Positions 1 through 16,985 of a stretch of DNA of 34,511 bases are shown here, one piece after another. Position 1 is the first letter of the stretch. The number at the start of each line of letters is the position of its first letter. The stretch is from Rhodothermales bacterium. Lineage in GTDB: Bacteria; Bacteroidota; Rhodothermia; Rhodothermales; UBA10348. The notes beneath the pieces were generated by a model. It ran no database searches and was not told where the DNA came from. It was given only the letters and a program-made list of their open reading frames with translations. A program made the position numbers and the translations under genes. The stretch spans positions 1-34,511 of the forward strand of contig JABDJZ010000367.1 in NCBI GenBank assembly GCA_013003255.1, in the 5' to 3' direction.

Positions 1-2021
<2,021 letters not shown>

Positions 2022-2022
<1 letters not shown>

Positions 2023-2795
2023 TGGCCGCGCCGATTACCGTCGAACCGCTCGATGTCCTGGCATTCGGTGCCCATCCGGATGACGTGGAGCTGTGTGTAG
2101 GCGGGACGGTGGCGCTGCTGGTGAAACAGGGGTACCGGGTAGGCATCGTGGATCTCACCCGCGGCGAGTTGGGATCGCGCGGGTCCGTGGACCTCAGGGC
2201 CAAGGAAGCGGCCGATGCCGCGCGCATCCTGGGTGTGCACGCCCGCGAGAACCTGGGATTCCCGGACGGCGACATCGCGAATACCGTCGAGAACCGCTGG
2301 CGCGTGGCCCGCGCGATTCGGAAGTACCGGCCGCATATCGTGCTCATCGGTGCGCCGGACTGCCGGCACCCGGATCACCCGGCAGGAGCCCAACTGGTGG
2401 CCGACGCCATCTTCCAGGCCGGTCTGGTCAAGATTACGTCCCAGGAGTTCGGACAGGATCAGGAGCCGTGGCGCCCCAGCCATGTGCTCCACTACATGCA
2501 GTCCATCGACTTCATCCCCGACTTCGTGGTGGATGTGGGCGAGGTATGGGAGCAGCGGACCAGGGCGCTTCTGGCCTATTCGTCCCAGTTCCACTCACCG
2601 GACTACACCCCCGGCGAAGATGAGCCGGAGACCTTCATCTCCAACCCCGGATTCCTGAAGTTCATCGAGTCACGTGCTGTGGCGTTGGGCTACCGGATTG
2701 GGGCTACGCATGGAGAGGGATTGCTCTACCGGCACGGGCCGGTGGGCGTGTCGGACCTGATGGACGTGCTCAAGCGGGGGCGGTCGGTCCGGTAG
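2022..2795 (+). CDS. bshB1: LmbE/PIG-L family N-acetylglucosaminyl deacetylase, BshB1-like (bacillithiol biosynthesis)
   Basis: MAAPITVEPLDVLAFGAHPDDVELCVGG, DLTRGELGSRG and CRHPDHPAG are LmbE/BshB1 signatures. The ATG at 2022 shares one base with the leuS stop (TGATG). The upstream extension of the ORF to 1755 overlaps leuS and is arginine-rich. Confidence 0.8.
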
Positions 2796-2876: not shown

Positions 2877-2918
2877 AAAAATGAGACGTCCTGCAGCTCT
2901 AAGAACTACAGGACGCCT
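2877..2918 (-). terminator. Candidate intrinsic terminator of the minus-strand polysaccharide operon
   Basis: 2884-2893 pairs with 2909-2918 (10 positions, one mismatch), with two more possible pairs inside the loop. On the minus strand the stem is followed by CA + T5 (A-run 2877-2881 on +). It lies ~70-115 nt downstream of the stop at 2990. Confidence 0.45.
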
Positions 2919-2929
2919 CTCCCCGACGC

Positions 2930-2989: not shown

Positions 2990-4870
2990 TTAGAACAGGT
3001 TCAGTGTCACGCGGCTTGTTCCGGTTGGTACACGGTCAAGGACGAGCAGGTAGGTCCCCTCGATGTCGCCGGCAACCAGGTCACCGGTCAGATCGCCTTC
3101 AAGAGAATCGAAGCCGACATCGCCCAGACTCAGTTCGAGCGTCAGTCCGGAGACAGCCTCCCGGCTCTGGTTGTTCAGTTCGATCGAGAAGCGATCGCCC
3201 TCGGACTCCACGACATCCACGGAGACGGCGTTGCGGAGCGTCCACCAGCGAAGCACTTCGTTTACTGTGGCCATCCAGGTGCCGCGCTCCTGAGCGAGCC
3301 CGATGACCTCGCGGAGTTCGCCGGTCCTGGCTGATCCAGCGCGCTCGGATTCGGGATGGAAAGGAAGGATGTAGACACCACCGGCACGCTCCACCTCGTG
3401 GAACCGGGTCACGAAGTCGGTCACCCCTGGATCCAGCGGCATCAGAATCGCCGGGTTCGGAGCTACCGCCTCGCGCTGAGGCTCACGGGCCTGGCGACGA
3501 CGGGAGCGAAGGAATGCAAGATCGACCTGCTCGGTGGCGGAAGCCTGAAGGGCGCGGTAGTCCACGTCCTCCCACCAGCGCACCGCGGTAGGAGCCAGGC
3601 TTTGGCCGTTGGGCAGCAAGACGTAGTTGTACCCGCCCTCGACCGCCGCACGCAGCGTGTTGCCGTCGTGGTAGCCACCCGGCGGATAGAGTCCCACCTG
3701 GGTGCCACCCAGCGAGCCGCTGGCGCGGGCAATCCTTCCGGCCTGTACCTCAAGAGGCTGTCCAAGCAATACGTTGTCTGATTCGGCTGCGATGGCCACT
3801 TCACCCAGTTGGCCCATCGTGGCTACGAGATCCGGAAATCCGAGAGCCTCGTCCGTTGTGACGAAGAAGGTTGCCGGGACCCGGTGGGTCTGAAGAAGAC
3901 TGAGGAATTCTTCCCATCCGGACATGTAGCTGAGCGGAGCCATACCGACCGTGGGCAGGGCTGCCACTGCCACGGCAGATCGCGCCAGTTCCGGCCAGGG
4001 GCGAACGGAAACGCTCCGGGCTCCGGTAAGGTGCGCCATGGCGTTGGCCATCATGCGCTGATACGCGGCTTGATGAGTGCGCTCACGGGACACGTCCTGC
4101 GGACCGAAGCGCGTCCAGAGTACAGCGCCGTCCCCAACCCTGTTGAACATCATCAGGGTCAGGTCCGCCATCAGACGGTCATCGCGACCGCTGTAGGAAT
4201 ACGGGGTGCCCAGGGCCATTCCAGTGACTGGACGGGCAGCCGTCAGCTGCGGAATGGCCGCAAGATTGAGTCGAAAACCCGGCGGGACGCCCTGGCCGAC
4301 CGGCGTTGCCGCGTCGACGCTGTGAAGCAGTCCAAATGGCTGATCCGGAATGCGGGTTACGAGTTCGGCACCCACCAGCTCGGCAAAGAAGGAGTTGTCC
4401 GCATCACGGCCACGCTCGTCGTAGCGTCCCATCGATCCGGTAGCAATTACGGAGCCGCCGCGATCCACGAAGCGAAGGATTGATTTCCGCTGCCGTCCCG
4501 AGAGGGCATCGGAGGAGGGCATGATCAGCAGGTCATAGTCCTTGTGGCTCAGGTCCTTGGCTACCTCCGAGTCGCTGACCGTCATGTAGGGGACCTGAAG
4601 TCCGAGGAGGAACACCTCCCAGTAGTAGACGGCATCCCGGACACGGGAAGTCTCAAGGGTCGAGAGGCCACGGGCCTGGTCGGAGACCATGAGCGCCACG
4701 CGCGGCTCATCGCTGTCCCACAGTCCGCCCACCGTGTGGCTCACGCCCGGGGAGGGCTTGGCCAGGGTCAGGGTGGCGTCCACGGCCTGCGCGCCTGCGG
4801 ACAGGGGCAGCCCCAGGGCAAACACGAGGGCTAGAGCCAGGAGTCGCACGCTATGTTTGATCTCGTTCAT
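2990..4870 (-). CDS. Secreted protein: signal peptide + GATase1/ABC_transp_aux-like domain + NodB-fold (polysaccharide-deacetylase-like, motifs degenerate) + C-terminal beta-sandwich; paralog of 4875-7181
   Basis: Preferred start is ATG 4870 (MNEIKHSVRLLALALVFALGLPLSAGAQA, a signal peptide), 4 nt after the upstream stop. The ORF-track start at 4912 would overlap the upstream gene by 38 nt. DYDLLIMPSSDALSGRQRKSILRFVDRGGSVIATG resembles a GATase1-like strand-loop. RVPATFFVTTDE ... LYPPGGY ... ILPFHPE ... TVNEVLRWW resembles a NodB/CE4 fold. Confidence 0.7.
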   Translation of the reverse strand: MNEIKHSVRLLALALVFALGLPLSAGAQAVDATLTLAKPSPGVSHTVGGLWDSDEPRVALMVSDQARGLSTLETSRVRDAVYYWEVFLLGLQVPYMTVSDSEVAKDLSHKDYDLLIMPSSDALSGRQRKSILRFVDRGGSVIATGSMGRYDERGRDADNSFFAELVGAELVTRIPDQPFGLLHSVDAATPVGQGVPPGFRLNLAAIPQLTAARPVTGMALGTPYSYSGRDDRLMADLTLMMFNRVGDGAVLWTRFGPQDVSRERTHQAAYQRMMANAMAHLTGARSVSVRPWPELARSAVAVAALPTVGMAPLSYMSGWEEFLSLLQTHRVPATFFVTTDEALGFPDLVATMGQLGEVAIAAESDNVLLGQPLEVQAGRIARASGSLGGTQVGLYPPGGYHDGNTLRAAVEGGYNYVLLPNGQSLAPTAVRWWEDVDYRALQASATEQVDLAFLRSRRRQAREPQREAVAPNPAILMPLDPGVTDFVTRFHEVERAGGVYILPFHPESERAGSARTGELREVIGLAQERGTWMATVNEVLRWWTLRNAVSVDVVESEGDRFSIELNNQSREAVSGLTLELSLGDVGFDSLEGDLTGDLVAGDIEGTYLLVLDRVPTGTSRVTLNLF

Positions 4871-4874
4871 GTTC

Positions 4875-7181
4875 TTAGCGGTCGATGCGGAACGGATCGG
4901 TTTCCGGACCAATCAGGTCAATGTGGAAGATCCGGTACTGCTGCGGCTTGAGCTCATTGATGGGCATCACCAGGACAGTGCCGTTCTCGTGGAGTTCGTA
5001 GGGCGGGATGTCCTCCCCTTCGCCGAACACCTTGAAGATGTTGATGAGCTCCGGACGGATATTCACCGACTCGACAGGGCGCCCGAGGGCAATACTGATC
5101 GAGGCGTTTTCCGCGATGTTGCCGTTGTCATTTGAGACGCGGACAAAGATTCGGCTCGGTCCACGCTGCTCCACGTCGGCGTTCAGACCCTGGTGAAGCC
5201 TCCACCAGTGTGCCATCTCGTCGCCGGAGGCGTTCCAGAAGTTGCCAGACTTGAGGGTGCGGGCCACGCCGCGGATCACCGCGGGATTCTGCCCGAGCAG
5301 ATCACCCGAGTAGATCAGGTTGAACAAGCCACCTTCGTACTCTGCGCGTCGAATGCCGTCCTGGATCAGGCTGGAGGCCAGGTCCATGGAGATAGTGGCA
5401 TCGCCACCCAGAATGTCCTTGTCGCTCCGTGTGGTGACACCGATTCGAGTTAGTGACTCGAAGGGTTCACCCATCAGCTTGGGGGTGGTGCGCCGACCGA
5501 TGGAGTCGGGCAGGAAGTAGGTGTAGACGCCGGCGTCCACCAGTCCGCCCATGGTCTCGTTGCTGAGCATGCCGCGCTCGGTGGAGCGGTATCCGCGGAT
5601 GGGACGGCCGCCCACGAGCCCTTCGAGGGTGCTGCGCATACGCTGCAGGCGCTGTGCCTGGGTTGACGTGGATCCGTCGCTGCGAGTCCGCAGGGTGTCG
5701 TACACGCCCACGTCACCAACATCATACATCCGGGAGACCAGCGAGCTCAGCCCCTGCGAGTTCTCCGGCTGGACAAACCATGTGCCCGGGAAGTTCTCGG
5801 CCTCGAGGACGTCAACTGCAGATCCCAGGGCATCGACATTGTCTTCTGCCACGCCGGTGATCATGCCGCCGGCGGTATAGGGATAGGGCCAGTCGTGCAC
5901 CCAGATCACCGGTTTGCGGCGGAGGTAGTTCATCATGTTGGCGAACAGCTTGCCGAGCTGGCGCCAGTCCTCACGGTCTTCCGGACCAACGCCCATGGCG
6001 TTGCGCTGGAAGCCGAGGTACACAAAGCGTCCCTTGCCGTAGTTGCCGTAGGCCATGCCGGTGGTGTTTTCCACGGCATCGGTGCTCACGAGGTCATCCG
6101 TGGCAAAGTCGTACCAGAAGCCGCCGGACTGCGTCCGCTCGGGTTCGGTAACGCGGACCTTCACACCCGGATTGTAGACCTGGATCTTGACTCGGTATCC
6201 CGACGGCACGTTGGCCGTCATGGGCGTGTTGCCCCGAAGCGTAAAGCGACGGACACCGGCGTTGGTCCGCGGATACGGAATCTGTGCCGTGGGGTCCCCG
6301 CCAATCCACGTGAAGTACGTGACTTTGACGGCGTCCGTCATCGAGCGCTCACCGGCCGTATTGCGAAGCGGTGCGCGAACGATCTCGGCACGAGCGTAGT
6401 CGCGGGTCGGCGGGTTGGTGCCCAGGGTGTCGTTCCACTCGTAGGTACGGAGCGGCGGGAAGTCCGCGGCTCTGGCCTCGGTCCGCTGGGTCTCGCGGAA
6501 AAGAAAGTCCCGGGAACTAGTCCCATCAAAGGGATCGGAACTCTCGTTTTCTGCGAGATACTCGGGCAGGTAGATGCCAGGTGGCGTGTACCCGGGGAAG
6601 GTGTCGGTGTAGACGCGGTAGTTACCTACGCCACGCTCGACAAAGCCCTGGAATTCCACACCGAAAGCCTCTTCCACAAAGCTCCAACCGCGCCAGGATC
6701 CGTCGGGACGATACACGCCCGGGGTCCACGTGGCCAACACACTTCCACCGTCCTGCATGAACTCCTTGACCCGCTGGATCTGAACGTCCGACATGGCCCT
6801 TACGGAGGGCAAAATCAGCACGTCGTAGTCCTCGAGGGAGCCCTGTTCCAGATCCGTGTCACTGATGTCACGGAACGAGATCTGGCGTTCTTTCTCGATG
6901 AGAAACTCGCGCCAGCTGAGCAGGGTCTCGTCAACCCACGTGGTCGTGGTGTCGCGGAGGTTCAGCTCACGATGGACCCGCTTCGTGTAGTCACTCTGCA
7001 GGAGCGCCACACTGGGGTTGGCCGTTTCGCCGATCGCCATCGGTGAGGCATCCCGGATGCTGAAGGCGCCCAGGGCGGACTCCAGCAGGAGGATGTACAC
7101 CAGGATCGCGGCGGCGAGAGCCGTGACGCCGAGCGTCACAAACCAGAGCGTGTTGATCCTTTCGAGTCGAGGCAGTGCCAT
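4875..7181 (-). CDS. Membrane-anchored exported protein: N-terminal TM/signal anchor + GATase1-like domain (with large insertion) + NodB-fold (motifs degenerate) + C-terminal beta-sandwich; paralog of 2990-4870
   Basis: ATG at 7181. INTLWFVTLGVTALAAAILVYILLL is a TM helix. EDYDVLILPSVRAMSDVQIQRVKEFMQDGGSVLATW parallels the downstream paralog. FPGTWFVQPENS ... PIRGYRS ... ASGDEMAHWWRLH parallels ATFFVTTDE ... LYPPGGY ... VNEVLRWWTLR. Confidence 0.75.
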   Translation of the reverse strand: MALPRLERINTLWFVTLGVTALAAAILVYILLLESALGAFSIRDASPMAIGETANPSVALLQSDYTKRVHRELNLRDTTTTWVDETLLSWREFLIEKERQISFRDISDTDLEQGSLEDYDVLILPSVRAMSDVQIQRVKEFMQDGGSVLATWTPGVYRPDGSWRGWSFVEEAFGVEFQGFVERGVGNYRVYTDTFPGYTPPGIYLPEYLAENESSDPFDGTSSRDFLFRETQRTEARAADFPPLRTYEWNDTLGTNPPTRDYARAEIVRAPLRNTAGERSMTDAVKVTYFTWIGGDPTAQIPYPRTNAGVRRFTLRGNTPMTANVPSGYRVKIQVYNPGVKVRVTEPERTQSGGFWYDFATDDLVSTDAVENTTGMAYGNYGKGRFVYLGFQRNAMGVGPEDREDWRQLGKLFANMMNYLRRKPVIWVHDWPYPYTAGGMITGVAEDNVDALGSAVDVLEAENFPGTWFVQPENSQGLSSLVSRMYDVGDVGVYDTLRTRSDGSTSTQAQRLQRMRSTLEGLVGGRPIRGYRSTERGMLSNETMGGLVDAGVYTYFLPDSIGRRTTPKLMGEPFESLTRIGVTTRSDKDILGGDATISMDLASSLIQDGIRRAEYEGGLFNLIYSGDLLGQNPAVIRGVARTLKSGNFWNASGDEMAHWWRLHQGLNADVEQRGPSRIFVRVSNDNGNIAENASISIALGRPVESVNIRPELINIFKVFGEGEDIPPYELHENGTVLVMPINELKPQQYRIFHIDLIGPETDPFRIDR

Positions 7182-7225
7182 CGTTTCGGTGGTCGGGGTG
7201 GAGGTGGATTACGGAGAGGTTGGAC

Positions 7226-7657
7226 CTACAGCCAGGCGTAGCCTTCGTCCTGCTGGGACTGCTGCTGCTGCTGAGGCGGGGCCTGCTGAGCCTGCTGCTG
7301 CTGGACCTGCTCCTGCTGCGGGTTCACCGGCACAAAGCCTTCGTCGGTGTACTCCCAGAAGAGCGAGTTGGGATTCTGACCCTGCTGCGGGGCCTGCAGC
7401 TGCTGACGCTGTGCCTGCTGGCCAGGGGCCGGCTGGTACATCGACGCAGAAGCGGGAGCCGTCTGCTGGATCATGGGCTGCTGGCCTTGAGGAGCAACCA
7501 ACACGTGGGGCTCCTGCTGGAGGTAACCGGTGTGCTGCTGCGTCGTCCGGGCCTTGCCCTCACGAATCTTGTAAAGGATGTAGGCGGCCACTGCCAGAAT
7601 GAACGTGGCAATCGTTCCTACAAGGATGATTGTCGAGAGAATCGGGACTAGTTCCAT
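7226..7657 (-). CDS. Small single-pass membrane protein with glutamine-rich low-complexity tail
   Basis: Preferred ATG at 7657 (MELVPILSTIILVGTIATFILAVAAYILYKIREGKAR: one TM followed by positive charges, so the tail is predicted cytoplasmic). The ORF-track start at 7681 is a GTG. The tail has 35 Q in ~104 residues by my count and ends ...QQDEGYAWL. It is co-directional with the flanking operon genes. The + strand ORFs over the same CTG/CAG repeats read as poly-Leu/Ala-Pro shadows. Confidence 0.6.
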   Translation of the reverse strand: MELVPILSTIILVGTIATFILAVAAYILYKIREGKARTTQQHTGYLQQEPHVLVAPQGQQPMIQQTAPASASMYQPAPGQQAQRQQLQAPQQGQNPNSLFWEYTDEGFVPVNPQQEQVQQQQAQQAPPQQQQQSQQDEGYAWL

Positions 7658-7818
7658 GATGGTCGCGCCGTGGTGGCGCACTTAGGTTTCAATTCGCCTG
7701 AACAATCATCAAGCACTGTGCCCAAATCGGCGATGGCCCTTTTTGAGCCGTTTTGAGGGTTTTGTCTTCGATTTGCAGTCTCATTCTGCAACTGGAATCA
7801 AAATGAGATCGATGATCT

Positions 7819-9312
7819 CTATTGTTTGGACCCACTTCCGATGCGCTCCAGCTTGCCCCACGTCATACCAATGCCGAGGAATTCCTCGATGGTGGCGAAC
7901 GTCTTACAGACGTCAACGATGAGGATGAAGAAGAGCCGGTAGAAGAGTGAGTAGAAGACAAGGCGCGCTTCTTCCTTCTCCACGGCCACGCAGTACAGCG
8001 CGGCTATCAGGTCCAGAATGGTGAGACTGAGCCACCAGTAGACCAGGTAATAGCTCATGTCGAACACGAGCGCGATGAAAATGAAGTAGGCGTTCGCGAA
8101 GATGTTCATGATGGGCCAGATGAGGGCCTCGAAGGCCATCGACCACATCACAATCGTTCCACCGAAGTTGATGGTCGGATTGAAGAAGAGATCCTTGTGC
8201 TTGCGCACGGCCTGAATGATGCCGCGCGTCCAGCGGTACCGCTGCTTCAGCAGATCCACGATGGAATCCGGTGCCTCCGTATAGGACTTGGCATCCGGCT
8301 CGTACTCCACGCGCCAGCCGGCACGGATGATCTTGAGCGTGATGTCCGCGTCCTCAGCAAACGTGTCGGAGCTGTACCAGCCCGCGTCCACGATGGCCTG
8401 CTTGCGGAAGAGACCCAGCGGACCGGGAATGATGTTGACCAGCTTAACGATGGACTGCGCGGAGCGGGCCATATTGAGGCCTTCCACGTATTCCAGCGCC
8501 TGCAGTGTGGTCCACACGTTGTCGCGGTTGAGCACCTTGACATTGCCGGCGATAGCGCCGAGCCGGGGATCCACGAAGTGCCGGATGGTCTTTCTGAGGG
8601 TGTCCGGGGACAGCTGCGAGTCGCCATCCACGTTGAGGACGTAGTCGTGGCGCGACACCTGGATGCCCGCGTTCAGGGCCGTAGCCTTGCCGCCATTTGG
8701 CTTCTCCACCAGGCGGACTTCCACGGCGCCCTGCCGGTAGATGCCCACGAGTTCACGGGCAACGCCGCGGGTATCGTCCGTGGACCCGTCGTCCACCAGG
8801 AGTATTTCGTACTGCGGGTAGTCCATCTCGAGCAGGGAGGCCACGGTGGACTGTAGAAGTTTGCCCTCATTGAACGCCGGCACGATGATCGACACCGGCG
8901 GGAGGAAGTTGGGGTCATGCCCCTCCTCTATGGTGTGTTTCGTGGTGTTCAGGTACGCCATGTTCATCAGGCTCAGGTACCGGAACAGCAGAATCACCAG
9001 GAACAGCACCAGCGCGACGATCGAGGAGTACACGATCAGCCCGCTCCAGGAGAGCGACACCGGCTCATTGGTCCATCGCGTCAGGTATCCACCCGGATCC
9101 TCCATGAAGAACCAGATGATCCCGAACAGGATCAGTGAGAGGAATCCGTAGATGACAATGCGCCTGACGATGACCGCTTGGTCCTCGCGCGGCCCGACCA
9201 TCCCCTCATCAGAGCGGCGAACGGGCTGGAACTGCGTGCGGCTCAGAGATTCCTCTCTCTGGGCCGGGGGCGCAGATGCAGGCTGATTGTCAGTTTTCGT
9301 TTCGTCGGCCAT
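7819..9312 (-). CDS. Processive family-2 glycosyltransferase (PgaC/IcaA/NodC/BcsA-type membrane-embedded polysaccharide synthase)
   Basis: IIVPAFNE...LLVDDGSTDDT (UDP-binding D), NVDGDS (DxD), TFAEDAD (TED-like acceptor motif) and LKQRYRWTRG (Q-x-x-RW processivity motif). Two predicted TM helices lie before the catalytic domain and about three after it. There is a ~55-aa polar N-terminal extension and no PilZ or other fused sensor domain. Confidence 0.9.
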   Translation of the reverse strand: MADETKTDNQPASAPPAQREESLSRTQFQPVRRSDEGMVGPREDQAVIVRRIVIYGFLSLILFGIIWFFMEDPGGYLTRWTNEPVSLSWSGLIVYSSIVALVLFLVILLFRYLSLMNMAYLNTTKHTIEEGHDPNFLPPVSIIVPAFNEGKLLQSTVASLLEMDYPQYEILLVDDGSTDDTRGVARELVGIYRQGAVEVRLVEKPNGGKATALNAGIQVSRHDYVLNVDGDSQLSPDTLRKTIRHFVDPRLGAIAGNVKVLNRDNVWTTLQALEYVEGLNMARSAQSIVKLVNIIPGPLGLFRKQAIVDAGWYSSDTFAEDADITLKIIRAGWRVEYEPDAKSYTEAPDSIVDLLKQRYRWTRGIIQAVRKHKDLFFNPTINFGGTIVMWSMAFEALIWPIMNIFANAYFIFIALVFDMSYYLVYWWLSLTILDLIAALYCVAVEKEEARLVFYSLFYRLFFILIVDVCKTFATIEEFLGIGMTWGKLERIGSGSKQ

Positions 9313-9342
9313 CGTTATACCAGTTTGGCTGCCAGGACCACC

Positions 9343-12300
9343 CTATAGGGTCCAGGAAAGCGCTGCAGACAACGTGAATGTGTTGTAGCTGTCGATGAAG
9401 CTTGTTGCCCCGGATCCCAGGGATCGGGTGGACTGACCCAGCGAACCGGACATGTTGAATGACCAGTTAGCGGCCAGGCGCTTGATCCAGTCCATCTCCA
9501 CGCGTCGTGAGACGAACCCGGAGGAGCGTGCCACGATGCCCATGGCTCCGCGAAGCCGGATGTAGGACTGGAACGGGATGTTCTTCTCGTACTCCAGGAA
9601 GAGGTCGTACGAGGAGTAATTGCGGGGCGAGAAGTACAGATCGGTCCGGGACCGGTAGTCGATCTGGTAATAGGTGATGCCCAGCCACGTGTTCGGGACG
9701 ACGCGATAGGACGCCTCGAGCAGGATGTTCGTACCGAAGTTGGTGTCGTTCGCCGTACCCGGGGTGCCGAAGTTGTCACGGACCACGTTGAAGGACACGT
9801 TTCCGTGCAGACGAAGGGTCGAGTCCGGCATCACGCTTGGCACGAAGCCCTGGAAGTTCAGCTGCGTCAGGCGGAGGTTGTACTCGCCGCCGGCCGGTGA
9901 CCAGAGATCAATGGAGCCTTCGCCTACCCGCAGGCCAACGGATCCGCGATACACACCCGGATCCTGCCTCCAGTAGCGGATGCCACCGAATCCAACGGTA
10001 CGGCCACCTTCGTAGTCGTAAATCCCTACCTCGCCGGAGAGGCGATTCGTGTAGGCCGCGTGGTTGTACTGCATCTCGGGAGGCGTCAGGTCGCGGTATC
10101 CGGCCGCGAAGACCTGGTTGACGCGTCCGCGGGTCTCGGCAGATCCTGGAATGAGTTGGCGGGTACCCTCAATGAAGTGCGAGTTCACGCCGGCCATGAA
10201 CACGGTGCCGTATCCCCACGGGATGGTCACGTGCGTCTGCATGCCCTGTGCCCAGCGGTCATAACGCGTGCCGCCACCGCGGGCCAGGACGGCCTCGGCC
10301 ACGGGCACGATGATGCCGGCAAAGTCCAGCCCCTGCCACTCGCCGCTCTGCGCCAGACTCTGGCGCATGCTGAGGTCGAGGGCAGCGGAGCGCTCCTCAA
10401 CGGTTTCAGAGGCATCAGCCAGGGCCTGCGCATCCGCATAGACGGCCTCGGCCTGCGTAAAGAGACCCAACTCCCGGTAGGCATCCGCCTGAAGGAAGCG
10501 AACCTCGTAGTCACGCGGGTTGCGCGTAGCGAGATCCTCGAGGGTGCGAAGTGCACCGGAGTAGTCCTCGCGGTAGTACTGGTTGCGCGCGATCTCCTTG
10601 GCCACGTCGTACTCCCAGGCCTGCTGCTGCAGCGCGTTGAGAATCGAAAGTGCGGCCACGTAGTCGGCAGCGGCCGAATGGACCTGCGCCAGCTCCTTCA
10701 GCTCCGAACGGGAGCGGCGGCCCTGGGCCTCGAAGTAGTCTTCGTACGCAGCGATGGCCTGATTGAACTGGCGTGCCGCCGCCAAACGACGCGCGTTGTT
10801 CAGTACCTCAATGCGATCCGCCTCGGCGGTTCGAATCCGCTCGCGGGCCACCAGCTGGGCCACGGTCGAGATGCGGGTGTCAAATCGGGAGTCGTTCAGG
10901 GCGTCCGCCGTACGGACGTAGTTGTCGGCGGCCTCCACATCACCCCGGAGGAGACGGTACTCGGCCAGTACCAGCAGAAGTTCTGGATCGGTCTGACCGA
11001 CGGTCCCCATCAGGTTGTCGACATAGGCTTCGCCCAACTGGTCCAGATCACCCATCGAAATGGAAGCCAGGACGAAGAGGCGCTGGAACCCTGTGTTGTC
11101 CGGCTGGCGATCCAGCAGGTAGTCGGCCTGCTGCAGAGCCTGCTCGTAGTAGCCGCGGGACTGAAGTGCCTCCGCGAAATCGCCCCGGAGTGCATCATTG
11201 CCGGGCTCGACGCTGAGCAATTCGGCGTAGGTCTCGAAGGCGTCCTCGTCACGGCCCAGCACCAGGTAGTGCGTTGCAATCTCACGGAGGGCTTCGCGGT
11301 TGCCGGGATTGGCCACCAGGATGTCCTCAAGCTCCATCACGCGGCGCTCGGCCACGGCCAGACGCATCTCGGCGATGGTGCGCAGACGGTTCTGGTACCC
11401 GGGGTTGCCCGGATCGCCGTAGCGTGCGTCCGTCAGGACATCCAATGCTTCCTGAACACGACCGGCTTCGGCGAGCTCATCCACCAGGGCGAATCGCGTG
11501 CTGGTGTCGCTCGGGTCAAAGGCCAGCCGATAGGTCAGGCGGTCAATGGCAAAAATGGGCGTTCCGGCACGGACGAGTCCGTCATCCACCCTGACGAAGG
11601 CGGTGAGCCAGCGACGGCCATCGCCGTGCCGATCCTCGAGAATTCGGAGCTGATCCCAGGCCTCCGCATACCGGTCATACTTGATCAACTGGTCTACGAG
11701 GCTGAAGCGCTTCTCGTCATCACCCGGCGTGGAGCGCAGTTCGCGATACAGGCGATCCACAATGAATTCCGGTGCCGGCTGAACGGGACCGCGGCGCTCC
11801 ACGGAGCGCAGGCCGGCCTGAGCGCGCTGGTTGTAGCGTCTCCACTGGTTGGTCCGGCGGTGCCGCGGCGCGAGGTAGTCCAGATTCTGCTTGGCCTCGA
11901 AGTAGCGGCGGTTCTCCAGTAGGAGGCCCACCAATTCGAAGCGCTTGGCGTCCTGATTGGGGCTGGCCATCAGCTCCCGGGTCAGGACATCAATGGGATA
12001 GGTCGAGAGACGGGACCGACCGCCGTCATCCAGGCGTGCCAGCTGAGTGGAAACCGAGGTCCAGCGGGTCTGCCAGCGGTCGGAATCGCCGTGGCGGGTA
12101 CGCAGGTATTCCAGATTCTGACGGGCCTCGAAGTAGCGATCATCGCCGATCAGCAGGTCGACCAGCTCAAAACGAGTCTCGTCCTTGCTGGGATTGGCCA
12201 TCAATTCCCGCGTCTTCACGTCGATCGGGAAGGTGGACAACTGCTGCGGTGTCGCCGTCAGGCCGCGTGTAACTGCACGGTCGCGACTCTTCCATTCTGT

Positions 12301-13209
12301 CTCGGCTCCGCGACGATCCGCCATGAGGTCCAACTGCTGCCGGGCCTCGAAGTAGCGCTCGGCCTGGATGAGCAGGTCGATGAGTTGGTAGCGGCGAGCG
12401 TCATCATTCGGATTGGCGCGAACCTCGCGGAACGCCACGTCAATCGGGAAGGTGGAGGAGCGGGCAATCACATCGGGATTGCGGGCCTGCAACTGGCAGT
12501 CCTGCGCTTCCTTGTTGCCCGGGTTGAGCAGTAGAGACTGTTCGCAGGCCTCAAGCGCGCCGGCATAGTTACCCTGCCACAGTCGAAAGAAGCCGAGGCG
12601 CATCCACAGGTCATCGTCAGTCGTGTAGATCTCCACGTACTCGGTGGCCACCGACTCACCAAGCGCGTTGTCGCCCTGGTAGTTGGCGATCGCGATCAGG
12701 TAGCGCTGGACGATGTCCGGTGTGCCCTGGGTCTGATCCAGATAGATGCTGTACTGCTCGGCAGCCTCCCGGTAGTACTGCGCGTCGAACAGGGCGTCCG
12801 CATAGCGGATCTGAAAGGAGAGGTTGTCCGGGTTGGCCTCAACCAGTCGTCGGAGGCTCCCCAGATTTCCGGTGTTCGGCGAACGATTCCCTCGAATGGC
12901 CTGTAGTCCCTCCAGAGCCTCACTATTGGCGGGATCGATCTCCAGGACCGTCCGGTAGTCCGCTTCCGCGGCGTCTTCATTGCCCAACAGGCGCTGAGCC
13001 TGTGCCCGCAGCAGCAGGGCACGGGTGTCCAGGGTGCCCGGCTGAATGACGCCGTTCAGGATGGTCAAGGCCTCATCGTAGCGACCCTGCTCAATGGCAG
13101 TTTCCGCTCTCGCCTGGGCCGCAACATCCTGGGCGTTTAGAGAAACAGGCGTGGTCGCCACGAGAATCGCGGCGACCAGACTGGCAAATAGGTACCTGTA
13201 TGAGGTCAT
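9343..13209 (-). CDS. 1288-aa outer-membrane export component: signal peptide + long TPR/helical-repeat periplasmic region + C-terminal ~330-aa beta-barrel (PgaA/BcsC/PelB/NfrA-like architecture)
   Basis: MTSYRYLFASLVAAILVATTPVSLNAQD is a signal peptide. TPR-like A/L/Y/E-rich helical pairs run through ~residue 950. From ~958 the sequence switches to alternating Y/G/N/S/T-rich beta-strand patterns (GIRYWRQD, NLRLTQLNFQGF, WLGITYYQIDYRS, DLFLEYEK, TFTLSAALSWTL). Confidence 0.85.
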   Translation of the reverse strand: MTSYRYLFASLVAAILVATTPVSLNAQDVAAQARAETAIEQGRYDEALTILNGVIQPGTLDTRALLLRAQAQRLLGNEDAAEADYRTVLEIDPANSEALEGLQAIRGNRSPNTGNLGSLRRLVEANPDNLSFQIRYADALFDAQYYREAAEQYSIYLDQTQGTPDIVQRYLIAIANYQGDNALGESVATEYVEIYTTDDDLWMRLGFFRLWQGNYAGALEACEQSLLLNPGNKEAQDCQLQARNPDVIARSSTFPIDVAFREVRANPNDDARRYQLIDLLIQAERYFEARQQLDLMADRRGAETEWKSRDRAVTRGLTATPQQLSTFPIDVKTRELMANPSKDETRFELVDLLIGDDRYFEARQNLEYLRTRHGDSDRWQTRWTSVSTQLARLDDGGRSRLSTYPIDVLTRELMASPNQDAKRFELVGLLLENRRYFEAKQNLDYLAPRHRRTNQWRRYNQRAQAGLRSVERRGPVQPAPEFIVDRLYRELRSTPGDDEKRFSLVDQLIKYDRYAEAWDQLRILEDRHGDGRRWLTAFVRVDDGLVRAGTPIFAIDRLTYRLAFDPSDTSTRFALVDELAEAGRVQEALDVLTDARYGDPGNPGYQNRLRTIAEMRLAVAERRVMELEDILVANPGNREALREIATHYLVLGRDEDAFETYAELLSVEPGNDALRGDFAEALQSRGYYEQALQQADYLLDRQPDNTGFQRLFVLASISMGDLDQLGEAYVDNLMGTVGQTDPELLLVLAEYRLLRGDVEAADNYVRTADALNDSRFDTRISTVAQLVARERIRTAEADRIEVLNNARRLAAARQFNQAIAAYEDYFEAQGRRSRSELKELAQVHSAAADYVAALSILNALQQQAWEYDVAKEIARNQYYREDYSGALRTLEDLATRNPRDYEVRFLQADAYRELGLFTQAEAVYADAQALADASETVEERSAALDLSMRQSLAQSGEWQGLDFAGIIVPVAEAVLARGGGTRYDRWAQGMQTHVTIPWGYGTVFMAGVNSHFIEGTRQLIPGSAETRGRVNQVFAAGYRDLTPPEMQYNHAAYTNRLSGEVGIYDYEGGRTVGFGGIRYWRQDPGVYRGSVGLRVGEGSIDLWSPAGGEYNLRLTQLNFQGFVPSVMPDSTLRLHGNVSFNVVRDNFGTPGTANDTNFGTNILLEASYRVVPNTWLGITYYQIDYRSRTDLYFSPRNYSSYDLFLEYEKNIPFQSYIRLRGAMGIVARSSGFVSRRVEMDWIKRLAANWSFNMSGSLGQSTRSLGSGATSFIDSYNTFTLSAALSWTL
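11380..12456 (-). repeat. Five tandem in-frame ~71-79-aa protein repeats inside the TPR/porin gene
   Basis: Units start at residues ~252, 325, 402, 481 and 552. The pattern is S-T-[FY]-P-I-D-V-x-x-R-E-[LV]-x-A-N-P-x-x-D-x-x-R-[FY]-[EQ]-L-[IV]-D-L-L-I-x-x-x-R-Y-F-E-A-[RK]-Q-x-L-[DE]-[YL]-[LM]-x-x-R. At DNA level the 15-mer GGCCTCGAAGTAGCG recurs at 11893, 12124 and 12343 (spacings 231 and 219 nt), and GTC[AG]ATCGGGAAGGTGGA recurs twice. Confidence 0.85.
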
Positions 13210-13224
13210 GACGTTTGGTCGGGA

Positions 13225-14475
13225 TTAAGCCTCGTCCATCGCATAAGTGAGAAACTCGTCTGCACTTTGGAATGGGCGGCCGTCGGGGACGACGATCGCA
13301 GAGACGGCGTGCAGCAGGTGATCTGCCTGCTGGGGCGCGTCTGCGCGGAGTCGGTTTTTGAGTCGTGCGAAGAAGCCTTGCGCTTCCTCGGGCTTGCTGT
13401 CAGCGAGCAGCACGACAAGCCGCTCGTTAATGGCGCTGATCAGCATGTCATCCTGGGGACGGAGGCTATCCGCTACCAGGTCGATAATGAATTCAAAGTC
13501 CACCGGACCGGACTCCGAGGTCTGGTCCATGCGCATGGCCAGCAGGAGAAACGGATTCGCTCCGTCCTCGCGGTCAGCGAAGAACTCCTGGAGTCTCTTG
13601 CCGAAGGCGCCACGGTTCGAGTAGCGCTCAAATGCGTCTTCCTTCTCCACCTTTGGCGCGGCGGTCTCCGCTCCCGTGACATCCGGGGCGACATGGGGGA
13701 ATTGGGGGGGCTTGGGAGCGGCCGGGGCGGTCTGACGGGCGGTCTCCGTAATCACGGGTGTCTGTCCCGGCGTCTGGACGATGTCGGCAAGGTCCCAATG
13801 ACGAACCACCTGGCGCTTGATTTGCCCAATGTGCGGGATGAGGGTCAGACGGCGCTCCGTGCTCGTCATCTCCTCATCAGCGGCCTCAATGTGAATGGCT
13901 CCGGTCATCTGTCCGGCCATGAAGTCAATCACGCGGCGGGACTGGGGGTTGGCCGGCTCCGGCAGCGCAACCACGACCGTGGTGTCCAGCGAATCGATCT
14001 GCTCCAGCATGCGGATGAACTCCATCCGGAACCGGTCGAATGACCTGAACATGACAAACGGCATGAAGTCGTTGATCACCAGGCGATCCGGCCGCTGCTT
14101 GCGAATGATGGTCACCAGATCCCACAGGGCCTTCGCCACGGAGTCATCACCCATCGCCTGGGGATTCATCATCGGGGGAATCCGCATCAGGCGAATCAGG
14201 CCATCCTGCTGCGCCTGCTTCAGATCAAATCCAATGGACGCGGCCTGAATGACCAGGTCCTTGGGGCGATCCGAAGCAATGAAAAGGCAGCGCTCCCCGC
14301 CCTGGACACCGGTCTGGGCGTAGCGCAACGTCAGGAGTCCGCGGCCGGTAGCCGCGCGTCCGAAGGTGAGGTAGGCCCCACCTTTGTAGAGACCACCCCA
14401 TTCCTCATCGAGCGGATCGATGCCGGAAGGGAGCATTGCGGCGAAAGCGGACATGCTTGCTGGCGTGTCTTTCAT
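13225..14475 (-). CDS. KaiC/RecA-superfamily-like domain (degenerate Walker A) + Pro/Ala-rich linker + degenerate GGDEF-like domain; first gene of the operon, candidate regulator
   Basis: ATG at 14475. LPSGIDPLDEEWGGLYKGGAYLTFGRAATGRGLL resembles the KaiC/RadA N-terminus, but the P-loop reads G-RAAT-G-R-G instead of GxxxxGK[ST]. RLVINDF is Walker-B-like. The C-terminal half, FERYSNRGAFGKRL...FLLLAMRMDQ...SLRPQDDMLISAINERLVVLLADS...AVSAIVV...ADEFLTYAMDEA, follows the GGDEF-domain layout without a GG[DE]EF motif. Confidence 0.8.
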   Translation of the reverse strand: MKDTPASMSAFAAMLPSGIDPLDEEWGGLYKGGAYLTFGRAATGRGLLTLRYAQTGVQGGERCLFIASDRPKDLVIQAASIGFDLKQAQQDGLIRLMRIPPMMNPQAMGDDSVAKALWDLVTIIRKQRPDRLVINDFMPFVMFRSFDRFRMEFIRMLEQIDSLDTTVVVALPEPANPQSRRVIDFMAGQMTGAIHIEAADEEMTSTERRLTLIPHIGQIKRQVVRHWDLADIVQTPGQTPVITETARQTAPAAPKPPQFPHVAPDVTGAETAAPKVEKEDAFERYSNRGAFGKRLQEFFADREDGANPFLLLAMRMDQTSESGPVDFEFIIDLVADSLRPQDDMLISAINERLVVLLADSKPEEAQGFFARLKNRLRADAPQQADHLLHAVSAIVVPDGRPFQSADEFLTYAMDEA

Positions 14476-15092
14476 AATGAGCAGGCAGAGAGTTCGATGG
14501 AGCTGGGAGCCGGTATCCGCTTTATCAAACGGTATGCCGAGATTCCCTCAACTCCCCCAGAACGCCCAAAACAGGCTGTTTCGACTGGTTTCGCGTTTCT
14601 CATTGCCTTGATTCCTGTTAGTCCAATCCCTGTTTGAGATCGGTATCGACACGCCGGTCCGGGTTTTGGAGCCGACGCGCAATGGGTTGGATCGGCGGGA
14701 AATCCAGTTCCTCAAGCCTCAGAAGACCCAAGAATGCCCGCACCGGGACCTCTGACCGAGGCTGGACCGGAAGAGCGGCAGCACACAATCAGCCGATGCG
14801 GGATCTCATCCGGAGAACGGCAGGAAGCTTGTAAAGGGGTGTCACCGGGGCCACTGAAGCGGTCTCCACATCCCTGTCATCCTGATTCACTCTCGGTCTC
14901 ACATTGAGCGAACCTCGTCCCATTCGGCGCTTGCCGCTCATCGAAAACGGCCATTTCAGGCCTAAATCGAAGCTTTGGACCACTCGGCGTGAGATTGGCC
15001 CGAACCTTGATGACATGATTCTCGACCGCACCGCGGCCTACCCGGATCAACTTGACATTCGACCCATGTCGGATACGAATCCAACACTTGCC
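14476..15092. promoter_or_regulatory. Long divergent intergenic region, presumed to hold the promoters/leaders of the polysaccharide operon (-) and of the beta-propeller lipoprotein gene (+)
   Basis: About 600 bp with no convincing ORF; only short arginine-rich or out-of-context ORFs are present. GC looks lower than the flanks. I could not recognise specific promoter motifs. Confidence 0.4.
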
Positions 15093-16985
15093 ATGAAGCG
15101 CAGCACTCTTCTCAGTATGAATACCGCGTCCCGCCGAATCGGGCTCACGTGCATTCTCTTTCTCTCCGTCCTTCTTTCGGGATGCGACATCTTCGGAGAG
15201 GCGTTCGACGAACGCGCCCCGAGCGTGCAGTTGGACCGTCCCTTTGAGGGCGCGCGACTCACTGGCGCCAACGCCATTGTCGCCGTCAACGCGGAGGCCC
15301 TGGGAGATGACAACTACATCTCCTTTGTCAATGTCCAGTTGGACGGACTGCGCGTGGGCGAAGCTGAGTGGGATGGCGGGCGTTATGCGCTGCGTCTGAA
15401 CACGTTTGAGCTTGCCGACGGCCTTCACCGCCTTGAGGCGGTTGCGTTTGACCGGTACCAGGCCCGTGGCATTTCCGCGCCGATCACCATTGAGGTGGAG
15501 AACATCAGCGCCGGAGACGGCCCCGTGATGCAGATCCTCGAGCCGGAAGACGGCCAGGCCGTATCCGGGACGGTTCGGGTGTTGGCGCAGCGTGGAGCCG
15601 GACAGCCTCCGGTCTCGCGCGTGGACCTCATCGTAGATGGCATCCCCTTCTACAGCACCTCGACTTCCGTGGGCGGCGATGCCTATGCCTTCGACTGGGA
15701 CACCTCCCAGTTCTCCGGCGGCAGCCATGTGATCGAGATCAAGGCCTACAGCGGTGATGAGGTCTTTCGCCTGAACGGACCCATCTCAGTGATCGTGGGT
15801 GGCAACGACGAAGAGGGAGGAGGCACGTCCACTGGCGCCGGCACCCTGGCATTCCGCGGCACCGGCCTTGCGGGCGAAATCAAGGGGTCCGTGGCCGTCG
15901 GTTTCAACGACGACATCTATGTGGGCTCCTCCAACAACACCCTGTATGCCTTCGACAACACCGGTGAGCTCCGCTGGGAGCGCGAAACCAAGGGTCCCAT
16001 CCGCTCCACTCCGGTAGTCGGCAACAACGAAGACGTCTTCGTAACGAGTGAGGATGGCCGCCTCTGGGGCTTTACCTCGGACGGCAACGACCTCTGGGCC
16101 GTCCCCTACAACAGCGCCGCTCCGCTCCGCTCATCCCCAGCGATGGGAGTCGATGGCGTCCTGTACTTCGGTGACACCTTCGGCAATCTGCACGCCGTCA
16201 ACTCCTTCAACGGCCTGTCAGCATGGACGAACCCGGTCAAGGTTGTTGACGGGTCCATTGTGGAAGCGCCGGTCATCACCCGTGACCACACCGTAATCGT
16301 GGCCGATTCCCAGGGACGGCTCTCCGGCTATGACCGGATGGGCACGCTCCTCTGGCAGTCCCAGATTCGCGGTTCCGGCGTCTGTGGGGGTGGTACCGCC
16401 CGGGCTCCGATGGCACTTGCCGAGATCCAGCTTACCGTTGAACTGCCCACAGGTGAGATCAGAAGCTCTACCGAGGCACTCATCTACGTGATGGCGGATG
16501 ACGGCTGCCTCTACGCCTACAGTGGCTTTGACGGGTCCCGCCTCTGGCACTACGCGGTTGGTGGCTCCCGCGTCTCCGGTCCCATCATTGACGAGAGCGG
16601 TACCATCTACGTGGGCACCGAGACGGGTCTCTTCTCCTTCAATGAGACCGCCGATGCGCTCACGCCGCGCCTCCGCTACAAGTTCGTCGCAGACGATGTT
16701 GGAATGCCGGCGATCGATACCAATGGCGTCATCCACTTCGTCGCCGGACGAACGGTCATGGCCATCAACACCAACGGAACGCCTTACTGGGAGTACCCGC
16801 TCAGTACGCTTTCCGATGGGCCGGTCACCATCAACCGCTCAGGGCAACTCCTGATTGCGGGTCGGAACGGCCACCTGTTCGGGCTCAACACGGCCTCGGC
16901 CGGGCTCGCCCGGGGTAAGTGGCCCATGTACGGCCGCAATGCCCGCCATACCGGTCGGATCGGCATCGACGCCAACGACGGCTAG
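15093..16985 (+). CDS. Lipoprotein with two Ig-like domains and a PQQ-like (BamB-type) beta-propeller
   Basis: Lipobox LLSGC follows MKRSTLLSMNTASRRIGLTCILFLSV. Candidate starts are ATG 15093 or 15117; the ORF-track start at 14904 adds a non-signal extension. Two ~90-aa Ig-like segments are present (ARLTGANAIVAVNA...; QAVSGTVRVLAQ...). Repeated propeller blades follow (LYAFDNTGELRWE, LWGFTSDGNDLW, LHAVNSFNGLSAW, LSGYDRMGTLLWQ, LYAYSGFDGSRLWH). The C-terminus carries GKWPMYGRNARHTGR. Confidence 0.8.
   Translation: MKRSTLLSMNTASRRIGLTCILFLSVLLSGCDIFGEAFDERAPSVQLDRPFEGARLTGANAIVAVNAEALGDDNYISFVNVQLDGLRVGEAEWDGGRYALRLNTFELADGLHRLEAVAFDRYQARGISAPITIEVENISAGDGPVMQILEPEDGQAVSGTVRVLAQRGAGQPPVSRVDLIVDGIPFYSTSTSVGGDAYAFDWDTSQFSGGSHVIEIKAYSGDEVFRLNGPISVIVGGNDEEGGGTSTGAGTLAFRGTGLAGEIKGSVAVGFNDDIYVGSSNNTLYAFDNTGELRWERETKGPIRSTPVVGNNEDVFVTSEDGRLWGFTSDGNDLWAVPYNSAAPLRSSPAMGVDGVLYFGDTFGNLHAVNSFNGLSAWTNPVKVVDGSIVEAPVITRDHTVIVADSQGRLSGYDRMGTLLWQSQIRGSGVCGGGTARAPMALAEIQLTVELPTGEIRSSTEALIYVMADDGCLYAYSGFDGSRLWHYAVGGSRVSGPIIDESGTIYVGTETGLFSFNETADALTPRLRYKFVADDVGMPAIDTNGVIHFVAGRTVMAINTNGTPYWEYPLSTLSDGPVTINRSGQLLIAGRNGHLFGLNTASAGLARGKWPMYGRNARHTGRIGIDANDG

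Follow-up and report, generated by a model that had tools for sequence, protein, structure and literature searches.

The 34.5-kb window analyzed here (the whole stretch of DNA, G+C ~63%), a contig of a Rhodothermales bacterium, carries between positions 2990 and 14475 six minus-strand genes, named g1 to g6 along that strand. These genes probably encode an envelope-spanning machine for the synthase-dependent secretion of a polysaccharide, a Rhodothermales-specific variant of a wider, uncharacterized system. A preliminary description made from the sequence had already proposed a synthase-dependent exopolysaccharide locus; this proposal is supported, with corrections on the regulator, on g4, on the modularity of the locus and on the clue to the polymer. 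The six open reading frames (ORFs) that it had listed are all present, and the gaps between consecutive genes from g1 to g6 (15, 30, 161, 44 and 4 nucleotides, nt) match those it had given. The closest relatives of the window proteins share 85-96% identity with them and come from Rhodothermales metagenome-assembled genomes. The genes are arranged as follows:

13225-14475, minus strand: g1, 416 amino acids (aa), KaiC-like/GGDEF-like cytosolic protein
9343-13209, minus strand: g2, 1288 aa, exported TPR protein
7819-9312, minus strand: g3, 497 aa, GT2 synthase
7226-7657, minus strand: g4, 143 aa, single-pass membrane protein
4875-7181, minus strand: g5, 768 aa, periplasmic CE4-fold protein
2990-4870, minus strand: g6, 626 aa, periplasmic paralogue of g5

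A locus of two modules

A g5 profile search of contigs representing one genome per species yielded 35 loci, all from Rhodothermales or Bacteroidota assemblies; the counts below refer to the loci with enough flanking sequence. Upstream of g5, g3 is found in 28/29 loci, g4 in 27/29, g1 in 18/25 and g2 in 17/25, and g6 lies downstream in 25 of 27. The order g1-g2-g3-g4-g5-g6 recurs across Rhodothermales genomes, and the arrangement is not a product of chance. The preliminary description had treated the six genes as one block and had named a lack of co-conservation in relatives as what would speak against it. The genes are co-conserved in Rhodothermales, but the block proves to be separable: the system is made of two modules, g1-g2 and g3-g6, which are usually fused. 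In one split genome, g1-g2 is found ~580 kb away from g3-g6 on the same 961,516-bp contig. Loci devoid of g1-g2 display SusC/SusD genes upstream; these upstream genes were considered as alternative exporters and rejected, being unrelated SusC/SusD. To note, glmS is located 1-3 kb upstream of g1-g2, on the opposite strand, at the split loci of both lineages examined, which may be a coincidence. This gene encodes glutamine-fructose-6-phosphate aminotransferase, the first step towards UDP-N-acetylglucosamine.

The predicted synthase, the putative exporter and the membrane and periplasmic partners

The g3 product possesses a GT2 domain with the motifs DDGS (residue 174), DGD (229), EDAD (320) and QRYRW (357), flanked by two N-terminal and three to four C-terminal hydrophobic segments. 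This bears out the earlier description of a GT2 with D, DxD, ED and QRYRW motifs set between transmembrane (TM) helices, as well as its remark that the synthase has no PilZ or MshEN sensor: neither domain gave a match in Pfam and NCBIfam scans of g3. The best NCBIfam match is PgaC_IcaA (TIGR03937, E=5e-58), at 196.9 bits for a cut-off of 422.3. The nearest characterized families are PgaC/IcaA, NodC and CelA, with 31% identity to Escherichia coli PgaC over 260 aa. Similarity to BcsA (22% identity, E=2e-12) was also detected, that to NfrB being slight (E=3e-4), ceramide glucosyltransferase structures match at E=2e-15, and the NodC, HpnI and MdoH models match weakly. An exact-match look-up of the g3 sequence returned nothing on record. 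The preliminary description would have been refuted by a GT2 clustering tightly with a known synthase, with every neighbour matching the cognate subunits; the 196.9 bits and the 31% identity to PgaC fall well outside such a case. The assignment of g3 as a predicted inner-membrane GT2 of the processive type, PgaC/IcaA-like, is supported.

The g2 protein starts with a signal-peptide-like N-terminus and matches multiple TPR families in Pfam. Two regions stand out:

11335-12450, minus strand: five tandem repeats of 73-78 aa inside the TPR region (residues ~254-625)
9346-10329, minus strand: C-terminal putative beta-barrel of ~330 aa (residues ~961-1288)

The repeats follow the pattern TFPIDV...RELxANPxD...RFELVDLL...RYFEAxQxL. 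The PGA_TPR_OMP/PgaA model (TIGR03939) matches g2 over the TPR repeats only, at 38.2 bits (E=5e-10) for a cut-off of 366.65. Of the TPR-plus-barrel protein described earlier, the export signal and the TPR part hold; the barrel comes down to two signs, an excess of strand alternation and BCSC_C matches in relatives. Alternating-hydrophobicity windows number 35 in the C-terminal domain, against 16.9 +/- 6.9 in shuffled sequences, and BCSC_C (PF05420) gives collinear, sub-threshold matches in five g2 relatives, the best reaching 21.8 bits for a cut-off of 23.5. Alignment by hhalign of this domain with E. coli BcsC and PgaA is not significant (probability of 0.4% for PgaA). In size, the domain equals the BcsC barrel. 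The barrel is the weakest element of the observation and is considered putative.

The g5 and g6 proteins are paralogous, with BLASTP E-values of 2e-12 and 7e-10. From the N-terminus, they are organized as follows:

g5, N-terminus: TM helix serving as membrane anchor
g5, residues ~55-420: GH42-domain-B/class-I-GATase-like domain
g5, residues ~425-660: NodB/CE4-fold domain devoid of the Asp-His-His triad
g5, C-terminus: beta-sandwich
g6: cleavable signal peptide, GATase1-like domain, and NodB-like domain devoid of TFDD and HxxxH

Foldseek comparison of the AlphaFold2 (AF2) model of g5 (predicted local distance difference test, pLDDT, of 79.5) returned 3rxz (7.6e-10), PuuE allantoinase, the CE4 pseudoenzyme BA3943 and many other CE4 structures, together with non-catalytic domains of GH42 enzymes. 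In Pfam, Polysacc_deac_1 matches g6 at 25.8 bits for a cut-off of 23.1, and the family profiles of both g5 and g6 match CE4 structures at ~1e-6. In alignments to Bc1960 and 2J13, the TFDD and H-S/T-x-x-H positions are replaced or unconserved in both families. The paralogy and the two domains, GATase1-like and NodB-like, announced in the preliminary description are hence recovered, and so is the loss of the CE4 catalytic motifs, in both families. Alignments and model concur in a predicted CE4 (NodB) fold without the catalytic aspartates and histidines. The most economical interpretation is that g5 and g6 would be non-catalytic binders or guides of the chain, replacing BcsB or PgaB; they may also have a non-canonical activity. 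At the split-type loci the g6 homologue is ~800-890 aa long, and its alignment with the g6 of the window is confined to the first ~440 residues.

The g4 protein possesses a single TM helix (residues 5-29) and 24% Gln, and gives zero matches against Pfam and NCBIfam. Its start at 7657 (MELVPIL...) is common to its homologues, among which the TM helix is near-invariant (MELVPILSTIILVGTIATFILAVAAYILYK-RER); this helix is still 70% identical in the sister clade introduced below. The tail is variable, Q/P-rich and disordered, and is predicted to be cytosolic by the positive-inside rule. It harbors three conserved short motifs: EPHVLVAPQ, SLFWEYTDEGFVPV and a C-terminal DEG[FY]AWL (DEGYAWL in the window). 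The preliminary description had noted the absence of a PgaD- or BcsB-type partner. A PgaD type is indeed missing, but g4 occupies the PgaD/IcaD position and resembles BcsF as a single-pass tether. The g4 homologue of the split-type loci is longer (190-310 aa).

The cytosolic module, the sister operon and the proposed mechanism

The g1 protein combines two domains joined by a linker:

residues 13-228: KaiC/RecA-like domain (Pfam KaiC PF06745, E=4e-17)
residues 235-279: disordered linker
residues 281-414 (~135 aa): degenerate GGDEF-like domain
13450-13461, minus strand: RxxD motif (R339-P-Q-D342), putative cyclic di-GMP (c-di-GMP) I-site

KaiC structures of the PDB match g1 at 1e-22, and Foldseek with its AF2 model (pLDDT 78) retrieves KaiC and FlaH at ~1e-13. 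The use of predicted structures, which had been recommended as a check, therefore assigns the KaiC fold to g1 and the CE4 fold to g5. The Walker A motif of g1 is degenerate (GRAATGRG), with an Arg in place of the Lys. Among 22 Rhodothermales homologues this motif reads GxxxSGR(G), the Lys being changed to Arg in 21 and the next Thr being lost, and Walker B reads "ND". The RxxD motif is located five residues before "AINER", which takes the GGDEF position, and is retained in the same 22 homologues (Arg in 21, Asp in all). In the AF2 topology it directly precedes the beta2-beta3 hairpin of a C-terminal domain that displays the secondary-structure order of GGDEF domains. Among 13 members of the g1 family, this domain matches GGDEF_2 in 12, GGDEF in seven and PelD_GGDEF in two, always below threshold. 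The recurrence of these Pfam matches and the modelled topology suggest a GGDEF-like nature. On g1 itself, GGDEF_2 matches weakly, and PelD_GGDEF (PF16963) gives 15.4 bits with almost the entire profile aligned, more complete than any other Pfam match of the C-terminal domain; remote family members reach 25.8 bits for a cut-off of 27. A PDB sequence search with the C-terminal domain profile returned noise only, and Foldseek with the whole model returned a list filled by KaiC chains that is uninformative for the fold of this domain. The C-terminal domain family comprises 160 clusters among 1.84 billion representatives.

Two remote members of the g1 family match the N-terminal part of CBP_BcsE (PF10995) weakly and below cut-off (E=0.002 and 0.007), and g1 of the window gives no match to this Pfam family. 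Homology of g1 to BcsE was considered and dropped after hhalign and PDB profile searches, the latter retrieving only KaiC, RecA and FlaH; BcsE is kept as an analogous architecture. It had been stated earlier that the architecture of the regulator was not recognizable from any characterized exopolysaccharide system. This statement does not hold: a degenerate RecA/KaiC-like NTPase followed by a degenerate GGDEF domain with an I-site parallels BcsE and PelD. BcsE is composed of a degenerate RecA/KaiC-like NTPase, a degenerate receiver domain and a degenerate GGDEF domain, in which an RxxD I-site binds c-di-GMP (PMC7439463). Its NTPase-like domain is recruited by the single-pass peptide BcsF, through beta-strand complementation from the cytosolic tail of this peptide (PMC11470070).

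A related operon was identified outside Rhodothermales. Homologues of g3 with 57-63% identity are labelled Ignavibacteriales, Melioribacteraceae and other taxa, and a metagenome scan with the g5-like protein as query yielded 79 loci of this sister type. Counted over loci with enough flank, the sister operon reads, in gene order:

exported glycoside hydrolase of family 9 (GH9), 33/36 loci
KaiC-like protein, 40/40 loci
TPR protein, 42/43 loci
GT2, 58/58 loci
g4-like protein, 73/73 loci
g5-like protein, the query and hence in every locus
fn3 protein, 36/44 loci
PAS/HisKA/receiver hybrid kinase, 34/34 loci

This operon apparently originates from Ignavibacteria-like bacteria. A GT2 locus labelled "Acidobacteriota bacterium" is syntenic, flanks included, with an Ignavibacteriales-labelled locus, and the outlying labels (Bacillota, Clostridiales, Acidobacteriota) may therefore be binning errors. 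Both operons share core genes and their order (KaiC-like/GGDEF-like, TPR, GT2, g4-like, g5-like). The sister operon adds the GH9, the fn3 protein and the hybrid kinase, and has one CE4-like protein, likewise without CE4 motifs, instead of the two found in the window. Its KaiC-like domain displays a Walker B "DE" in 34/34 cases and a Walker A "GKT" in 17/34. The two clades are thus reciprocal: the sister combines ATPase motifs with an operon-encoded kinase, Rhodothermales a pseudo-ATPase with a putative I-site. This pattern suggests that the regulatory input has been rewired.

Beyond the observed gene order, domain folds, motif states, co-conservation and modularity, we infer the interactions, the ligand binding and the polymer as follows. 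The g3 synthase would polymerize a nucleotide sugar and translocate the chain across the inner membrane. The TM helix of g4 would pack against the synthase, its flexible cytosolic tail displaying three docking motifs. The g1 pseudo-ATPase/GGDEF-like protein would be brought to the synthase, perhaps through the g4 tail in the way BcsF acts on BcsE; that the tail motifs do so is an analogy that we regard as rather doubtful. Rhodothermales g1 would sense c-di-GMP through the retained RxxD, a role which, from the motif and the parallel with BcsE, falls slightly short of an even chance. In the periplasm, the membrane-anchored g5 and the soluble g6 would bind or guide the nascent chain, and g2 would take it over on its TPR scaffold and pass it to the outside via a BcsC-like barrel at its C-terminus. 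A beta-linked homopolymer of hexose or N-acetylhexosamine is the probable product. The similarity to PgaC, NodC and chitin synthases, together with the CE4-fold partners, suggests an N-acetylhexosamine polymer, and the GH9 of the sister operon (33/36 loci) hints at a beta-1,4 linkage. In CAZy, GH9 comprises beta-1,4-glucanases and an exo-beta-glucosaminidase. The earlier view that the polymer cannot be deduced stands for the identity of the product, but yields on the linkage, for which the sister GH9 provides this hint.

Rival readings, chromosomal setting and known systems

The alternative that survives best, although unlikely, is a divergent PgaABCD system producing poly-beta-1,6-N-acetylglucosamine, in which g2 would be PgaA, g3 PgaC, g4 PgaD and g5/g6 PgaB, g1 being a lineage add-on. 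It accounts for PgaC_IcaA as the best NCBIfam match of g3 and the 31% identity to PgaC, for the PGA_TPR_OMP match of the g2 TPR region (E=5e-10), for a small membrane protein directly after the synthase, and for CE4-fold periplasmic proteins; Joint Genome Institute (JGI) pipelines name the g3 orthologues poly-N-acetylglucosamine (PNAG) synthase. However, the scores fall well short of the equivalog cut-offs (for PgaC, 196.9 bits with a cut-off of 422.3; for PgaA, 38 with a cut-off of 367), g4 has one TM helix and no similarity to PgaD, and the gene order differs. Furthermore, the CE4 catalytic residues and any PgaB/GH153 match are missing from g5 and g6, which harbor a GATase1-like domain instead, and in the sister clade a GH9 accompanies the system. 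GH9 enzymes are not known to act on beta-1,6-GlcNAc.

It is even less probable that g1 (with or without g2) and g3-g6 have unrelated functions and are adjacent by chance, g1 being a general regulator tied to the neighbourhood of bshB1. The latter is the PIG-L deacetylase gene downstream of g6, whose product is the bacillithiol deacetylase BshB1 (TIGR04001, 284 bits for a cut-off of 182.5); being above the equivalog cut-off, it is taken as a housekeeping gene. This deacetylase was considered as a functional partner of the operon and rejected. In 16/22 related loci, bshB1 converges on the final gene of the system, lying after g6 in complete and split loci and after g1 in four loci without g2-g6. 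As it flanks whichever gene is last, it serves as a positional anchor rather than a partner, and it marks a stable chromosomal insertion site. Its constant position is in line with vertical inheritance at a single chromosomal site and later translocation or deletion. Chance adjacency would explain why g1 lies alone beside bshB1 in four loci, why the modules are ~580 kb apart in some genomes, and why the g1 family is larger than the g5 family (167 against 118 matches). It is at odds with the short-gap g1-g2-g3 adjacency in two clades whose g1 proteins are ~27% identical, with the constancy of the KaiC-like (40/40) and TPR (42/43) proteins in the sister loci, with the retention of both modules in split genomes, and with the merely positional role of bshB1.

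A last alternative, in which g3 would make a glycolipid, an oligosaccharide signal or a periplasmic glycan and its exported neighbours would act on another substrate, is very improbable: the ceramide glucosyltransferase match (E=2e-15), the weak NodC, HpnI and MdoH matches and the seemingly non-catalytic CE4-like proteins would suit it, but QRYRW, ED and C-terminal TM helices are typical of processive translocating synthases, and a GT2 so strictly linked to a TPR/outer-membrane protein, and in the sister clade to an exported GH9, fits polymer export.

Synthase-dependent secretion of a polysaccharide is therefore retained as the preferred reading, and the following points weigh against it. The functions are read from sequence. 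The g2 protein of the window gives no BCSC_C match and, in a profile search, its C-terminal domain has no PDB sequence match, so that the barrel is not established. The hhalign comparison of the g1 profile with E. coli BcsE detects no homology (probability 0.7%), and all matches of the g1 C-terminal domain to GGDEF families stay below the Pfam cut-offs. The GGDEF-like domain of the sister clade is devoid of RxxD, the Arg position being occupied by D/S/H, which makes c-di-GMP sensing clade-specific at best. The window itself contains no GH9, the clue being taken from the sister clade, and the family that the GT2 matches best is a beta-1,6 synthase, in conflict with a beta-1,4 linkage. Finally, g1 is found alone beside bshB1, without g2-g6, in Rhodocaloribacter litoris (CP076718.1), on the 4.5-Mb chromosome of which no g5-family match was found, and on three metagenome contigs; g1 can persist without the synthase, and its role may not be confined to the secretion system. 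On one of the metagenome contigs with an orphan g1, a distant GT2 (29% identical to g3) is located 2 kb away.

The operon is embedded among housekeeping genes on both flanks. Its borders and surroundings display the following features:

13-2022, plus strand: LeuRS
~2010-2795, plus strand: bshB1
2883-2919, minus strand: strong terminator-like hairpin, 17-bp stem and T-run, ~70 nt past the g6 stop
7658-7818: g3-g4 spacer (161 nt), A-rich, with small hairpins and a fold z-score of -2.05
7805-7819: weak terminator-like hairpin near the g3-g4 spacer
14476-14903: divergent intergenic region upstream of g1 (428 nt), presumed promoter region
14877-15728, minus strand: 283-aa ORF without family match
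14904-16985, plus strand: BamB-like beta-propeller gene with strong Pfam matches

The hairpin at 2883-2919 is likely the end of the operon. No sigma-70 consensus promoter was found in 14476-14903; promoters of the Rhodothermales lineage may depart from this consensus. A search for regulatory RNAs gave zero Rfam family matches across the whole window. According to tblastn coordinates, the g3-g4 spacer measures ~160-225 nt in Rhodothermales relatives, as compared to ~20-80 nt in the sister clade. The 283-aa ORF is nearly entirely overlapped by the BamB-like gene and is probably not a gene. Besides this BamB-like gene, the flank upstream of g1 encodes an aldehyde dehydrogenase, a biotin carboxylase, a GMP synthase, BamD, a GH3, an RNase III and GcvP.

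Characterized synthase-dependent systems are few (cellulose, PNAG, Pel, alginate, Nfr and Pss) and, to our knowledge, nearly all work on them has been done in Proteobacteria and Firmicutes. We tentatively propose, as a claim a shade likelier to fail than to hold, that the operon and its sister represent an unrecognized class of such machinery in Rhodothermales and Ignavibacteria-like bacteria. If so, three features would distinguish it: a cytosolic KaiC-like/GGDEF-like module, tethered by a g4-like single-pass protein that bears the motifs; CE4 pseudoenzymes fused to a GATase1-like domain in the role of BcsB or PgaB; and a regulatory input that would have switched in evolution between ATPase motifs with a hybrid kinase and a pseudo-ATPase with a c-di-GMP I-site. 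The polymer it makes would be one that has so far not been described for Rhodothermales/Ignavibacteria-like phyla. Conserved in no fewer than 35 Rhodothermales genomes at species level and in 79 sister loci, this class would bring environmental phyla that have been little studied into the catalogue, and three unannotated protein families would be gained (g4, g5/g6 and the g1 C-terminal domain family). It would provide a natural experiment in the rewiring of the regulatory input to a synthase, and could tell whether tethering of the BcsE-BcsF kind is a general principle. The overall logic, with a GT2, a TPR porin, periplasmic helpers and a nucleotide sensor, is already known: the variant is new, the principle is not.

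No description of the g1-g6 system was found in the open literature, and a 2020 census of synthase-dependent operons contains no mention of Bacteroidetes or Rhodothermales (PMC7112194). In BLASTP comparisons of g1, g2 and g4-g6 with E. coli PgaA/B/D, BcsB/C/E/F/G/Z, NfrA and YbcH, no significant similarity was detected except a weak TPR similarity to BcsC. The preliminary claim that the set of parts matches none of the known systems is supported for Pga, Bcs, Pel and Nfr, membership of which fails in each case on defined features.

With Pga/Ica, the locus shares a homologous GT2 of 2 + 3 TM layout, a small membrane protein directly after the synthase, a TPR component of the outer membrane, putative in g2, and a periplasmic protein of CE4 fold. 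It differs by a g3 below the equivalog cut-off, by the single TM helix of g4, unrelated to the two-TM PgaD or IcaD, by g5/g6 proteins that lack the catalytic Asp/His and any sequence match to PgaB, its GH153 region included, by an extra cytosolic regulator and by another gene order. As for type II Bcs, the architecture of g1 resembles that of BcsE and g4 resembles BcsF, an analogy in which no sequence homology was detected; g2 relatives weakly match the BcsC barrel, and remote g1-family members weakly match the N-terminal region of CBP_BcsE. Conversely, g1 is devoid of the degenerate receiver (REC) domain, g3 is devoid of PilZ, and no BcsB, BcsQ, BcsR, BcsG or GH8 BcsZ is found among the six proteins.

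The Pel system relies on a degenerate GGDEF c-di-GMP receptor, and PelD_GGDEF provides the fullest-length, though sub-threshold, Pfam match of the g1 C-terminal domain; a TPR-plus-barrel exporter, the barrel being putative in g2, and a multidomain periplasmic protein with a CE4 domain complete the likeness. In Pel, however, the GT4 PelF is cytosolic, and PelD comprises transmembrane and GAF domains. The GT4, GAF, PelC, PelE and PelG families are not among the Pfam/NCBIfam matches of the six proteins, and the CE4 domains of g5/g6 are degenerate. The Nfr system, which is under c-di-GMP control, likewise pairs a GT2 synthase with a TPR protein of the outer membrane and an auxiliary protein in the periplasm. 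NfrB senses c-di-GMP via a fused MshEN domain, which g3 lacks, and NfrA and YbcH are unlike g2, g5 and g6 beyond TPR noise. The locus would thus combine a Pga-like synthase, a regulator that is BcsE/BcsF-like and PelD-like, and a BcsC-like exporter: as far as these likenesses go, it resembles each of the known systems and belongs to none.

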